A stretch of DNA of 32,660 nucleotides from Fidelibacterota bacterium. Its GTDB lineage: Bacteria > Fidelibacterota > Marinisomatia > Marinisomatales > TCS55. The position numbers are program-made. Position 1 is the first letter of the stretch. Each line of letters starts with the position of its first letter. The stretch covers positions 1-32,660 of the forward strand of contig JBHHTW010000026.1 in assembly GCA_046861385.1 (NCBI GenBank). The letters are read 5' to 3'. Shown in pieces: positions 16,380-25,300 of this stretch.

Positions 16380-19300
16380 CAAGCCACAATTACAAAAATC
16401 ATTCATGACCCGGTAGCGAAGTCGGAGACTGTTTGCCACGCCGAAGTGATAACGAAGGCGGGAGCTACCAAGCCACAGTAAATTGTTAAAAAAAGCCGCT
16501 GAAATTACCGGCGTTTATGGCCTTATGCAAATGCAAAGTCATCAATATTAAAGTCCTTGCTCATTGATGACAAGACATCTATTTTCCGCCGCAAAATTTT
16601 AAGACAAATGAACATAATACTCGCATCACATAATCCTCATAAAGTGGAAGAGTTGAAATCAGTCCTCCGTGATTTATCCGTTGAGATCAAGACGCTGGGT
16701 GATTATCCAAATATAGGCGAAATTAAGGAAACCGGGAGTACACTGGAAGAGAATGCTTTACTGAAAGCCCAAACAGTTAACCGGTTAACCGGAATTCCGG
16801 CAATCGCTGATGACACTGGTTTGGAAGTTGATGCTCTTAATGGTGAGCCCGGGGTGTATTCTGCTCGTTATGCAGGTATGAGGGCGACCTACGAAGATAA
16901 TGTACAAAAACTTCTGGAGAAGATGTCGAATATAGAGGTTAAAAAGAGAACGGCCAGATTTCGAACAATTGTGGCGTTTGTTGATGGTGAAACTGAACTG
17001 ATGGCCGAAGGGAAAATTGATGGTATAATATCCCTTGAACCAAAGGGTTCGTCCGGGTTTGGATACGATCCGCTGTTTTATCTACCGGAAATGAATTGTA
17101 CATTCGCGGAACTTTCTGCAGAACAAAAGAATAAAATCAGTCATCGAGGACTCGCAATGCAAAAACTTCAAAAACATCTATCTGCTTATTGGAGCAGTAA
17201 TATATAAATCAGGAGTATAACCTATAGACCTACCGCTATTGGAATTAATCCCCGCGAGTTGGGATTACTGACACCAAAATAACAAAAAAGGAGATATCCC
17301 TTTGAAGAAAGGGAGTAAGGCCGTATTCGTATTAATACTGACCATTTCAGCAATTTTTGCGCAGAGTGGCTATTGGGATCCGTCCGCCCCAATATCTTCC
17401 GAAAACTATACGCCGTACTCTAATTTTGTTTCTCCTGCATTCCCCAATATACCTAAACCATTAAGTCTTTTATCTGATACTCTAACGACATCGCTGGGCT
17501 GGATAAAAATGAATTTTATCCAACATGATATTGAAATTTACATTGACCGCAATTGGGAATACATCACCATTACTGAATATATTGAAGATGAGATTTACAA
17601 AATTCCCTTTACGGCACCGGTGGAATGGTATTTTCAACAAATGATGGATGTAAAACGACAAATTGTTTTTACAGAAAAAGTGAATTTAAGTATAGAAGAA
17701 ACTCAGGCAGGCTCGCGCCGGGGTACTAAAGGAATTACTATCGATTTAGTGGATATGGGTGCCCTGGGCACTGCATCATTGCGCGTTCGGGGAAATATCA
17801 ATATTTCCGGGAAAATGGTCTTTCAGGATCAGGAATTGGTTAGATCCAGTTTAAATGATTCACAAAATACCCATCTCGAATTTGATCAAAAGCAGAATCT
17901 CAACGTTGAAGGGAAAATCGGCGATCGCATTACCGTTTTAATGGATAATGATTCTGAGCGTGATTTTGACTGGGAAAACAATATTCGTATTTCATACGAA
18001 GGGAAGGAAGATGATATTATTCAAAAAATTGATGCAGGGAATATTTCTCTTTCATTACCTGCCACACAATACGTGACGTTTTCTGGCCAAAATAAAGGCC
18101 TGTTCGGATTAAAAGCAGTGTCTAAGTTGGGTCCTGTGGATATCACAACCATTGCCTCCATTGAAAAAACAAAAAAAGAAATCAAGGAATACAAAGGAAC
18201 TGATGAGGCTGAAGGATTTCGCCTTCAGGATTATGAGTATATAAAAAATAAATACTTTTTCATTAATGAAATGTACCGTAATGGTATCGAAAATGGTCAG
18301 ACCGAATATAAAGGACAACAAAAAACCATTTCAAATATCCCTCCTTTTTATCCATTAAACGAAATTGGACAGCATTTTATTGGGCGCTATGTTATACGGG
18401 ATTTTGAATTATACCGAATGGATAATTCGCCTGATCCCAATACAAATCCCGGAACCGCTTTTGTACACATTGATAACCCCTCCGATGATGATCGTGAAAA
18501 TGTTAACTTTAAACGGTTGGAAAATGGTCAGGACTATTCACTCAGCAATGATCTTGGATTTATTCGTTTGAAAAATGCTTCAGCAGATCAATTATTGGCA
18601 TGTCATTACTTTATTGTTGAAGTGGATCCTGCAGATAGAAATGTTGCGGTGGATACTGTGTTAGCTGTCGGGCATGGTCTCTCCGGGAGCGATTCGACTC
18701 TGGCGCTGCAAATGATAAAGCCGGAGAATCTGACTCCCAACCATGATTTATGGGACTTAATGTTTAAAAATGTATATTCATTAAGAACTCAGAATATTAA
18801 TGAAGAAGGATTCAAGATAGTTATTTGGAATACCATCATGACACCTGATAAAGAATCCGACCCCAATGGCATTGCTTATATTACTCAGTTTGGTTTAGAC
18901 CTAGTGGATGAAGCCAATACACAAAACAGCGATAATATCATTGATAAAAATAATCCCAATATTGTGAGTCTTGCCAATGGGGAATTATTTTTCCCTATGT
19001 TCCATCCGTTTGCCAGTGATTCAATTGAAGGCGGAAATCAAAACCCGGATTTAAAAGGTGTCCTTGGGGAAGGAAAAATGTATACGTCTACTATAATAAA
19101 TGAAAAAACTGAAGATAAGCACTGGGAAATCGAAGTCACTTATAAAAATAAATCAACCAGTATCAATTTGGGATTTATGATAGTGGAAGGAAGTGACCAG
19201 GTGTTTTTACAAGGTAGAGAGTTAAAGCGAGGGACAGATTATCAGGTTGACTACTTTACGGGAACTCTTGTGTTAGATCCAAATCTGGATCCGAATGCCG

Positions 19301-22300: not shown

Positions 22301-25300
22301 GTACAGTGGATGGCGCAACCATTGGCACACAGTTGAGATTCTCTTCGAGTGTAAGCATTCTCCCGTCGCAAATTTTTGAGATGGTATATAAGCCGCCCTC
22401 AAAAAATACACGTCAGCCGCAGGGCAGACGAAGAGGACGGTCCCGAAAACCTGTAGCTGAAGAAGTAAAGAAAAAAGAACAAAAAGATATTCCATTCCTT
22501 ACATCTATGCATGGGATCATTAAAAAAATTAATACCATTAATTTAACATATACTGAAAATTTGAATCGGACAAGTTATGGAGTACAGGGAAATGTCCCGA
22601 CAGGTTATAAGTTTGGCTGGCTTCCTGAACACGGGATGACCCATGATCAAACTATTGGTTCAAACTTAGGCGCATGGGATCATAAAAGGGATTTTTCAGT
22701 CCGATCCGGATTAAATCTGACAAGAACTATTTCAACATCTTTTAATTACTCTCAAAAGGTTTCTACAACCATCGGAGCTTCAAATATTGAACAGCGATCT
22801 ATGGAGCGCGATTATTTATCATGGGGAGATAAATTAGAAAATGGCTTTCCTTTCTTCGGATGGAGCGTGAGATGGACAGGAGTTGAAAAATGGCCTCTCA
22901 TAAAAAATATTGCTAGAACCGCCAGCCTGGAACATGGAATGAGCGGTAGAAACTCCCGAGCGTGGCAATTTGAAAATATTCATGTACGAAAAATGCCCCT
23001 TTTTGATCTGGATCCATTTATCAGTGAGTTTAAAGATGATCAACGATCTTCAAGAACAAATATTAGTTTTTCACCGCTGATTGGTTTAAATATGAACCTT
23101 AAGAAAGGGATTTCATTTAATATAAGACACACGGTGTCAAAATCAGTTCAGGACGAATTAAACGGTTTGAGTGTTCGGAAAGAAAAGAGCTTAACAGCCA
23201 GCAGTAATTACAGTCATCGTGGGGGATTCACCATTCCTCTGCCGATGACGGACGACTGGCATATTCAAAACACTGTAAATTTCACACTTAATTTCGACAT
23301 GAATGAAAGTGAAACATTGGGCAGTCAAGATGGTGGCGCGGAGTTTGGGCAACTAGCGTTTAATTCAGGCTGGAAAACAGCCTTACGCATTTCATACTCG
23401 TTTAGTTCTCAAATCACCGGAGGTATTATTTATGAATACAGAGAAACAGATTCCAAAACCACCGGCAGGAAAATAGACCGGGACTTTGGATTTGATGTAA
23501 ACATTGCCATAAGCGGATAAGGTTAGTGAGTTCTATCTGGTTATTAGTAGTTATTATGGAATACGCTGCTTATGTCAACGTTCCTTTGACACGGCCAATA
23601 CAGTCCGAAATGTGGTAGATATTAAAAAAATGAAAATAATAATAAAATTAACATTAACTATATTTGGACTATTAGTCACTGCAGGATGTAAAAATTCCAT
23701 ACCGGAATTTTCCGGGGATAAAGCATTTGTTTATTTAGAAAAGCAATGTTCTTTTGGACCTCGAAATCCGGGCTCGGATGGATATCATTCTTGTAAAGAT
23801 TATTTAATTGATCAATTGAAATTAAAAGCAGACACTGTTTGGACACAACCTTTCACGTATATAGATCCTTATAGGGATGGTGAATACAATCTATCAAATA
23901 TTATCGCTCGTTTCAATCCGGATGCAGAAAAGCAAATATTATTAGGTGCCCACTGGGATACGCGGCCTTGGGCAGATCAGGAATCGAATCTTGGCGATCA
24001 AATCAAACCTATCATTGGCGCCAATGACGGTGCCAGTGGTGTCGCGGTTTTATTAGCTTTGGCAGAGGTATTTCAGAATCATGATTTAAAGGTCGGTATC
24101 ACCCTTGTTCTGTTTGATGGTGAAGATTTAGGAATGTCCGGCGAAAGTGAATCTTATGCCCAGGGTTCGCTGTATTTTTCAAAAAATCTCCCAATCCCAA
24201 AACCAGAATATGCTATCGTTTTGGATATGGTTGGAGATACTTATTTACATCTTCCAATTGAGAGGATCTCTTATAGTCAAGCGCCAAAGTTAACTCGCAG
24301 AATATGGAAACTTGCTAACCGATTGAATTTACCGGCGTTCGATCAATCCCTTGGTTATTCAATCTATGATGATCACGTGCCTCTTTGGAAATATGCGGGA
24401 ATACCGGCTGTGGATATTATTGATTTTGACTACCCCAACCGCTTTTCGAATTACTGGCATACAAACCAGGACATCCCGGAGAATTGTTCCCCGTCAAGCC
24501 TGGAGCAAGTGGGTACATTGTTAGTTCATCATATCTATGGAATCGAATGATGAAACCGTTATATTTTGTTCCTATGCGTAAACATGTTTGGTTATTATTG
24601 GGCATACTCATTTTTATTTGGGGTTGCCCTGATGGGAAATCCACTACTGATGAATCAGTGCTTCTGAGCGATTTGCAATTTAACTATAACCAGGGTTTGA
24701 ACGAATTATTTGTGAGTGCCCAGGTCGCACCATCTTATTTGGGGAAACGACTAAAAGCAGTTAATGCACTATATTTTGGTTTTGATACTACCCAAACTGC
24801 CGACACCTTCCTTTTGAATGATAACGGTTCATCCGGCGATATAATTGCCGATGATGATGTGTACTCTCAAAAAATGAATAATGATACTAGTTCAGTTTCA
24901 TATGTTCTTAAACCATCAGATACGGATACGGTATATGTGAAATTTCTGGCTCAATATGTTGCAGGAAATAAAAGCATTATGGCAAGTTATAAAATGGGGA
25001 ATCAGGGTCCGACCATCCTGTCTGTCAGTATGCCCGATACATTAAAACGCCCTGGAGCTGACAGTGTTACAGTCAGTACGATCGTTGTGAATATAGATGA
25101 TCCCAACGGACATGAAGATGTTCAGACTTGCTATCTCATGTTCCAAAAACCAGACGGTACTTATTCCAGCGGAAGCCCCATTTCTCTTTATGATGACGGG
25201 AATAAGGACTTTTCCATGTATCTATGGGATGATGTTGCGAATGATGGTAAATTTTCACGCTACATTATTATTGATTCCAATAATCCCTTAGGGACATACA

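Follow-up and report, generated by a model that had tools for sequence, protein, structure and literature searches.

The sprA locus

The window analysed here is the whole stretch of 32,660 nucleotides at positions 1-32,660 of contig JBHHTW010000026.1, from Fidelibacterota bacterium GCA_046861385.1 (genome G000; 97.85% complete, 104 contigs). It contains a full-length gene for SprA, the outer-membrane translocon of type IX secretion systems (T9SS), together with carrier and cargo genes:

5158..7548, minus strand: cargo protein, type A sorting domain, choice-of-anchor B-like (TIGR04183 43.1, cut-off 23)
13586..16048, plus strand: cargo protein, type A sorting domain, Kelch/propeller-like (TIGR04183 38.5, cut-off 23)
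16557..17207, plus strand: RdgB/HAM1 pyrophosphatase, a housekeeping synteny marker upstream of sprA and outside the system (profile match, synteny)
17302..23520, plus strand: SprA/Sov, 2072 aa, full-length (TIGR04189 750 bits, cut-off 200)
23612..24550, plus strand: glutaminyl cyclase (M28) lipoprotein, Bacteroidota-type (E 3e-51 to the glutamine cyclotransferase 6QQL)
24484..25377, plus strand: predicted lipoprotein of the sprA gene run, conserved in close relatives and in G026
25374..27032, plus strand: 552-aa protein whose C-terminal Ig domain is sorting-like (FlgD_ig E 9e-6; CTD profile match at the C-terminus)
27169..28173, plus strand: PorV/PorQ-family carrier barrel (NF033709 91.6 bits, cut-off 90)
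28157..29020, plus strand: second, divergent PorV/PorQ-family barrel (NF033709 51 bits, under the cut-off)
30839..32599, plus strand: cargo protein, type A sorting domain, weak nuclease-like matches (TIGR04183 51, cut-off 23)

The SprA score reproduces that of the initial annotation, and a PDB search matched the protein to F. johnsoniae SprA (6H3I/8GL8) with an E-value of 4e-67. It is about 330 aa shorter than the F. johnsoniae protein; its N-terminal region was alignable with P. distasonis SprA in an alignment of 42 SprAs. The glutaminyl cyclase gene comes after sprA in most loci examined for synteny, and the lipoprotein at 24484..25377 has no Pfam or NCBIfam match. The 552-aa protein, encoded immediately upstream of a PorV-family gene, is likely a cargo protein.

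Because G000 is fragmented, absences lean on a survey of 151 Marinisomatota genomes (each at least 85% complete) and on single-contig genomes, namely G067 (969,550 bp, from a streamlined genus), which was read end to end, G016 and G026. The survey widens an earlier scope of 41 genomes (GldM) or three (GldL/PorP). SprA, previously reported from 41 of 41 genomes of the phylum, was matched in all 151 (150 over the cut-off), and the 6.2 kb gene is present even in twelve genomes of 0.8-1.1 Mb.

Scaffold, attachment and cargo proteins

Earlier scores for the other components were reproduced to within one bit. In G000, PorU scores 587 bits (previously 588; cut-off 420), PorX 628 (cut-off 300) and the PorV family 251 (cut-off 90, exceeded in 5/5 genomes), with 195 for the PorV equivalog model (below its cut-off of 250). 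The PorQ-like (98 bits, cut-off 220) and PorZ-like (168 bits, previously 169, cut-off 260) proteins are sub-threshold, and the SprE, PorD, PorZ and PorQ homologues all fall under the curated cut-offs. PorU was found in 138 of the 151 genomes, with its catalytic His and Cys motifs intact in 8/8 sequences examined; in the other 13 it was not found, and the streamlined genus is without it. By homology, a PorU/PorQ/PorZ attachment complex is present in most genomes.

A SprE-like protein occurs in 140/151 genomes. With 102 bits in G000 (HMM cut-off 250), it did not retrieve SprE in a sequence search of the PDB, whereas a comparison of folds did: the top structural match of the predicted model was 8GL8 chain I, F. 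johnsoniae SprE (Z 25.7, rmsd 7.5, 542 aligned), ahead of a runner-up with Z 22.6 over 308 aligned, and Foldseek likewise placed F. johnsoniae SprE at rank 1 (E 5e-13). The PorD-like protein scores 78 bits (cut-off 170), with DUF4835 over its own cut-off, and the skp gene adjoins bamA. The single-contig genome G067 retains SprA, PorV, SprE, PorD, Skp and four cargo proteins. That the periplasmic half (SprE, PorD, Skp) is there as well makes a working gate more credible.

Cargo tails in G000 number 53 by TIGR04183 and 65 by a genome-trained profile; 63 of the 65 end within 25 residues of the C-terminus, and 54 of the 65 proteins have a signal-like N-terminus, versus 622 of 1251 ORFs under the same crude test. 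The initial annotation counted 54. Four genomes examined carry 53-79 cargo genes each (77 matches in G016). The label 'heavily used' derives from these cargo gene counts, not from expression; G067, of the streamlined genus, has just four cargo matches and no PorU.

PorV-family matches number 11-18 per non-streamlined genome, and gene triplets of a TonB-dependent receptor, a cargo protein and a PorV-like carrier are common. A distinct sorting-signal class was found within these triplets, in a sorting-domain tree of 100 columns with unsettled bootstrap. The predicted complex of a carrier with its neighbouring sorting domain scored 0.81 (best control 0.00), with runs sharing at least 93% of contacts and a partner pLDDT of at least 68. 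The mark used for such scores is reached by 116/157 solved pairs and 2/215 mismatched pairs, and the complex may score by resemblance to solved PorV-CTD complexes.

Search for the energy chain

The porPKLMN record of Parabacteroides distasonis served as positive control. Its GldM and GldL_N scored 575 and 95 bits with a genome-search method identical to that of the survey, GldK, GldL and GldN scored 544, 238 and 227 bits by hmmscan, and PorG scored 227 bits, all far over the cut-offs. GldK, GldL, GldM, GldN and PorG/DUF6089 were each over the cut-off in 0/151 Marinisomatota genomes. PorP passed in one of the 151, a 6%-contaminated genome in which the contig is probably foreign; weak PorP matches in 53 further genomes include at least one PorV-family gene. 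PorT/SprT and Plug were each found in 0/5 genomes, a search without positive control. The reported absence of PorK, PorL, PorM, PorN and PorP, including a GldM count of 0/41, holds at phylum scale, and may extend to PorG (151 genomes) and, in the five genomes searched, to PorT and Plug.

The initial annotation allowed that very divergent PorL and PorM might be missed. A screen for adjacent genes with GldL/GldM topology, which recovers the control pair, gave none in G000 or G067, and P. distasonis GldL, GldM and GldN queries and the GldL profile gave nothing credible in either proteome. Weak GldL matches (14/151, best 26 bits) were rejected since they are limited to the coiled-coil tail (profile position 61 onward), and the best GldK matches (3/151, at most 122 bits) since they are confined to the shared FGE part. 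The best PorK-like score in G000 is again 44 bits (cut-off 350); the FGE protein of this genome carries an Ig domain, is not flanked by gld genes and was rejected as GldK. No FGE-fold (PorK-fold) protein was found in G067 or G026.

A single-copy small barrel encoded before rsmE in G000, G067 and 4/5 more genomes gives weak PorG scores (E 1e-2 to 1e-4). It lacks the cysteine tail (1/67 relatives has a Cys among its final 25 residues), and 1/69 relatives match PorG at E<=0.05. Among other membrane modules tested, none tracks SprA. A DUF6754/GlmL-like membrane operon, which in several genomes lies close to sprE or porU, was rejected as energiser, being found in only 98/151 genomes and in none of four families, one of them of 27 genomes. 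Marinisomatota thus have an intact extended translocon, and no energy chain was found.

Models of carrier release and comparison with known systems

It is very probable that Marinisomatota possess a functional gate lacking Gld homologues. As in Bacteroidota, a Sec-exported protein with a C-terminal sorting domain would bind a PorV-family carrier inside the SprA pore, the gate being formed by the SprA barrel and a periplasmic scaffold of SprE, PorD and one Skp. The loaded carrier would exit SprA through lateral exchange, which capture downstream would make one-way. From the main PorV, cargo would go to PorU, to be cleaved and anchored, and each dedicated PorV-like paralogue would retain its own cargo and dock with the TonB-dependent receptor encoded alongside. 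No sortase is required for the latter route; this would account for SprA being kept without PorU in the streamlined genus. That in a functional T9SS loaded carriers depart from SprA unaided by any dedicated motor is a reading we hold at slightly under even probability, unpowered release being deduced solely from absence. Loaded-carrier extraction is the proposed energy-requiring step of T9SS, and in F. johnsoniae motor removal traps substrate-carrier complexes on SprA (both PMC10994853); release therefore needs energy there, which counts against unpowered release, as does the presence of a Ton motor in 5/5 genomes checked. The weak PorG scores of the small barrel and the sub-threshold scores of the SprE, PorD, PorZ and PorQ homologues weigh on the same side.

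This motor (ExbB-ExbD-ExbD-TonB) is the basis of the main rival, which we consider unlikely: it would power carrier release via SprE/PorD, the carrier or the carrier-paired TonB-dependent receptor. It is the sole MotA/TolQ/ExbB-family motor found in G067 and G016, its genes share 59-73% identity between G067 and G000, and the frequent triplets speak for it. However, TonB-dependent receptors (at least five in G067, 20 receptor-like in G000) suffice to explain the retention of the Ton genes, G000 and G067 have one TonB each, the N-termini of SprA and the carriers show no TonB-box-like stretch by eye, and the Ton genes do not adjoin sprA or porU in the loci read. An unrecognisable motor, either a GldLM of extreme divergence or some inner-membrane machine unrelated to it, with the small barrel perhaps serving as PorG analogue, is improbable. 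SprE and PorD are themselves far under the cut-offs, so envelope proteins here diverge strongly; the small barrel is conserved with its weak PorG score, and several membrane proteins of G067 are without family (family scans of 229 shared envelope proteins and 34 others, among proteins with up to four helices). Nevertheless, the SprE and PorD models still picked up their proteins, whereas those for GldL, GldM and GldN were silent over membrane or core regions, no pair of GldL/GldM topology was seen, and the barrel has no cysteine tail.

It is very improbable that SprA and the tails export nothing and form a vestigial set or one with another envelope role. Plug and PorT were not found in 5/5 genomes (again without positive control), but the universal retention of sprA, including in twelve genomes of 0.8-1.1 Mb, the 53-79 tails, the 54/65 signal-like N-termini and the intact PorU dyad argue otherwise; in Fibrobacter, mature surface proteins are reported to lose the tail (PMC6851124), a comparison made irrespective of Fibrobacter motor gene content. 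In the least probable reading, GldLM would be replaced by a MotA/MotB/FliF-like/FliG cluster that lacks a flagellum and has an outer-membrane barrel of its own. Such a cluster lies at C83:33009-41474 of G000 (MotA, MotB, a FliF_C protein, FliG, TPR proteins and a barrel-coil-TPR protein) with no FlhA or rod/hook domains found, and a FliF-like gene occurs in 104/151 genomes. With this query the gene was not found in 47/151 SprA-bearing genomes, however, and the cluster is unlinked to T9SS genes in three loci read. MotA is absent from G067 and from G016, which nonetheless has PorU and its 77 cargo matches, and these two genomes refute a universal energiser of this kind. The barrel of the cluster, considered as a specific T9SS part, matched generic 12-stranded barrels instead (model pLDDT 64; KdgM Z 17.2, rmsd 2.1, 162 aligned).

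Motor and ring are usually regarded as essential T9SS core, and here a whole phylum has the gate with no detectable energy chain. Release without a dedicated motor, the preferred reading, would make the GldKLMN/PorG/PorP energy chain a later addition in the Bacteroidia lineage. More tentatively, Marinisomatota may keep the ancestral FCB T9SS, a self-sufficient SprA-SprE-Skp-PorD-carrier gate that delivers folded proteins to the surface without any dedicated motor and serves largely to give TonB-dependent receptors surface partners, with the rotary GldLM motor, the GldKN track and disulfide-linked PorG added later in Bacteroidia and secretion preceding gliding. A 2025 study inferred that T9SS first evolved inside gliding machinery (PMC12635249); the Marinisomatota system, if functional, conflicts with that view and argues for the opposite order. 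It also offers a naturally occurring minimal system, comprising five or six proteins within a genome of 0.97 Mb, in which the purpose of the motor can be tested directly, and a cultured member of the phylum exists (PMC11652737). Detectors demanding GldKLMN would overlook this secretion route in abundant marine bacteria.

Shared with the Bacteroidia T9SS (F. johnsoniae 8GL8; P. gingivalis Por) are SprA, PorV, SprE/PorW, PorD, Skp, PorU, PorQ-like and PorZ-like proteins, PorX and type A-like sorting domains. In contrast to Bacteroidia, no GldL/M motor, GldK/N ring, PorP/SprF or cysteine-tailed PorG was found in Marinisomatota, nor were PorT and Plug in the five genomes searched without positive control; SprE is shorter (540-715 aa), and G000 and G067 have one Skp instead of two. 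In Bacteroidota, type B cargo forms pairs with cognate PorP/SprF carriers (PMC10994853). The triplets resemble such pairs in that a cargo gene with a distinct signal class lies beside its own carrier gene, and differ in that the carriers are PorV-family, the signals are type A-like and the first gene of the unit encodes a TonB-dependent receptor. The motor-less translocon pattern is not unique to Marinisomatota: for the Ignavibacteria Melioribacter and Ignavibacterium, one sentence in PMC11705866 reports SprA, PorV and Plug but neither motor nor ring components nor any further T9SS protein, and the paper concludes nothing about function. In comparison, Plug was not found in Marinisomatota (five genomes, no positive control), and SprE, PorD, PorU and cargo occur across the phylum; for the cargo signals, an earlier partial precedent exists in SAR406 (PMC5596340).

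Translocon, carriers and cargo

The source genome (2.43 Mb, completeness 97.85%), whose named relatives are Marinimicrobia/Marinisomatota, encodes a full-length SprA at 17302-23520 (TIGR04189, 750 bits), which matches the solved F. johnsoniae translocon (E 4e-67) and whose N-terminal region can be aligned with SprA of P. distasonis. The scores initially reported for PorU, PorX, PorV, the PorQ-like and PorZ-like proteins and the best PorK-like protein were all reproduced. Against the 54 cargo tails claimed for this genome, TIGR04183 gives 53, and a tail profile trained on the genome finds 65 cargo proteins, 63/65 with the match at the C-terminus. 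Two other genes of the window were recorded:

11111-12040, minus strand: predicted outer-membrane barrel, 309 aa, of no Pfam or NCBIfam family
23612-24550: Bacteroidota-type glutaminyl cyclase, after sprA in most loci

Glutamine follows a signal-cleavage-like motif in 25/65 cargo proteins versus 123/1188 other proteins (a crude test); the Q-rule has been described as Bacteroidetes-specific (PMC5837995).

The survey comprised 151 genomes of the phylum, each at least 85% complete, from 27 families and 70 genera; related genomes among them are not independent samples. SprA was matched in 151/151 and exceeded the cut-off in 150/151; the best-scoring SprA (G027:C105, L001) is a Bacteroidota-like fragment on a contig of 2.6 kb, probably foreign, i.e., a contaminating contig in that bin. 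SprE-like genes occur in 140/151 genomes at E 1e-12, all under the cut-off, and in 0/14 control genomes. The predicted structure of the source genome's SprE-like protein (pLDDT 89) best matches chain I of 8GL8, SprE of the extended translocon (Z 25.7, rmsd 7.5, 542 aligned; next match Z 22.6 over 308), which Foldseek also ranks first. PorD scores 78 bits, and PorU is present in 138/151 genomes, with its His and Cys motifs retained in 8/8 sequences read. The gate is complete, with the SprE-like protein assigned by profile and predicted fold and PorD and PorU by profile; the SprA partners found here are parts of the extended translocon as described by Lauber et al. (PMC10994853).

Among 14 PorV-family matches in the source genome, 8 genes directly adjoin a cargo gene (background 110/2003 genes), and 7 of these 8 units are ordered TonB-dependent receptor, cargo, carrier. 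Three further genomes (G016, G026, G113) hold 42 such matches, of which 17, chosen among strong ones, were read: 2 were the main porV locus and 13/15 others the same triplet. Eight tails, mostly from carrier units, form a separate clade (98/93; 100 columns; bootstrap unsettled). A complex model of a carrier with its neighbouring tail scored 0.81 (best control 0.00), with runs agreeing in at least 93% of contacts and partner pLDDT at least 68; the score mark used is reached by 116/157 solved and 2/215 mismatched pairs. The modelled score may be owed to likeness with solved PorV-cargo complexes.

Survey of the energy chain

The initial annotation had reported GldL, GldM, GldN, PorP and a true PorK as lacking, and the survey widens this to 151 genomes, with PorP above the cut-off once. 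GldM (best 14 bits), GldL (best 26 bits, confined to the coiled-coil tail), GldK (best 122 of 350, FGE part only) and PorG/DUF6089 exceeded the cut-off in 0/151, and GldN had no match at E 0.01 in any of the 151. The single PorP above cut-off (1/151; G099:C14, L130) is Bacteroidota-like, adjoins an OmpA-domain gene and lies in a genome with 6% contamination; its contig is probably a contaminant of the bin. PorT and Plug were each found in 0/5 genomes, by a search without positive control.

Because the T9SS motor is absent from all 14 control genomes, the P. distasonis porPKLMN record was taken as control. It scored 575 on GldM and 95 on GldL_N in the same genome profile search as the survey, where the source genome, G067, G016 and G026 gave no score on either; hmmscan gave GldK 544, GldL 238 and GldN 227, and the P. 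distasonis DUF6089 protein scored 227 on PorG. With the motor and ring proteins of this control as phmmer queries, the proteomes of the source genome and G067 yielded one generic FGE protein only.

G067 (one contig, 969,550 bp, 96% complete, read end to end; L045-L093) belongs to genus g9, 12 streamlined genomes of 0.8-1.1 Mb that keep SprA. It retains SprA, an SprE-like lipoprotein, a PorD-like protein, two PorV-family genes (one adjoining bamD), a single Skp adjoining bamA, four tail-bearing proteins and one receptor-cargo-carrier triplet. PorZ was not found in it, PorX had no BLAST match, and PorU was not found in it or in any of the 12/12 sampled g9 members. PorK has the FGE fold, and neither G067 nor G026, also a single contig, showed any protein of that fold. 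Adjacent gene pairs with GldL/GldM topology were found in neither the source genome nor G067 by a screen that recovers the control pair. Family scans covered the 229 G067 envelope proteins common to the source genome and 34 further ones, all of them with four helices or fewer. Two envelope barrels were noted:

G067 L075:7845-10401 and source genome C2:28910-31430: BamG-like barrel (96 of 250 bits), adjoined by a probable lipoprotein, with porV and bamD nearby
Source genome C72:23534-24103 (L146:3534-4103): small outer-membrane barrel, single-copy, before rsmE

The former, with its lipoprotein, is possibly a Bacteroidota-type BAM accessory pair. The latter keeps its synteny in six genomes, the minimal one included, and has a distant relative in Ignavibacterium; its likeness to PorG is weak, and it lacks the cysteine tail that in PorG makes the bond with GldK (PMC12635249).

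Possible energy sources

Release without power is our tentative preference, somewhat short of an even chance, because the force-transmitting parts are missing along with the motor. A loaded carrier would exit SprA unpowered, and capture downstream by PorU or a paired receptor could render the exit one-way, which also favours this reading. It sits ill with the trapping result in F. johnsoniae, where substrate-carrier complexes stay on SprA once the motor is removed (PMC10994853). About half as probable is energy from the Ton motor: the sole MotA/ExbB-family gene of G067, and likewise that of G016 with its 77 cargo matches, lies inside an exbB-exbD-exbD-tonB operon. The source genome has three further MotA/MotB sets, one of them in a conserved flagellum-less rotor-stator cluster (TPR proteins, MotA, MotB, FliF_C protein, FliG, outer-membrane barrel):

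Source genome C83:33009-41474 (L105:2009-10474): rotor-stator cluster
G026 L116:4096-11974: rotor-stator cluster
G113 L120:5959-13347: rotor-stator cluster, alongside a distinct true flagellar cluster
Source genome C36:60164-61705: stand-alone stator, MotA-MotB
Source genome C95:10148-12363: stand-alone stator, MotA with two MotB-like genes

The cluster's barrel is 12-stranded with a long coil and TPR, its FliF_C protein has a signal peptide and one helix, and the whole looks like a trans-envelope rotary machine. FlhA and rod/hook domains were not found in the source genome, nor were flagellar export or rod genes; its family has the FliF-like gene in 13/13 and FlhA in 0/13 genomes, and FlhA occurs in 38/151 overall. 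A literature search found no report on a flagellum-less rotor-stator cluster. That this rotor powers secretion is very improbable: the FliF-like gene occurs in only 104/151 genomes, so the cluster cannot be a universal energiser. A motor of unrecognised type is unlikely, and that no protein is exported here scarcely less improbable than the rotor. A DUF6754 membrane operon was ruled out as universal energiser (98/151 genomes only). It encodes a presumably GlmL-like protein, DUF6754 and three further membrane proteins, and is highly conserved (58-65% identity between G067 and the source genome):

Source genome C57:22525-24339 and C45:427-5400; G067 L073-L074: DUF6754 operon

Comparison with known systems

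McBride and Zhu (2013) and Veith et al. (2017) reportedly list incomplete gene sets outside the core Bacteroidetes, so specialists may know the pattern. No paper on a motor-less T9SS in this phylum was found in literature outside subscription journals and supplements; the accessible parts of PMC11205867, PMC5837995, PMC8542988, PMC6539836 and PMC9127263 hold nothing bearing on motor absence, and PMC5445135 and PMC12365241 likewise nothing matching. Thrash et al. (2017) report many Por-tail genes in SAR406 (PMC5596340), Rocha et al. find PorV, SprA and Plug but otherwise no T9SS proteins in Melioribacter and Ignavibacterium (PMC11705866), Mizgalska et al. state that T9SSs may exist in other FCB phyla (PMC11285876), mature Fibrobacter surface enzymes lose the tail (Raut et al., PMC6851124), and Liu et al. 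(2025) infer that the T9SS arose inside the gliding machinery (PMC12635249).

Parsimony over this phylum, the one searched, the Ignavibacteria record and the FCB tree would make the motor a later addition in Bacteroidia. Judged from its genes, the system is a real, phylum-wide variant of the T9SS. It departs from the Bacteroidia T9SS in showing neither motor nor ring, and shares with it the translocon and the parts to work similarly.
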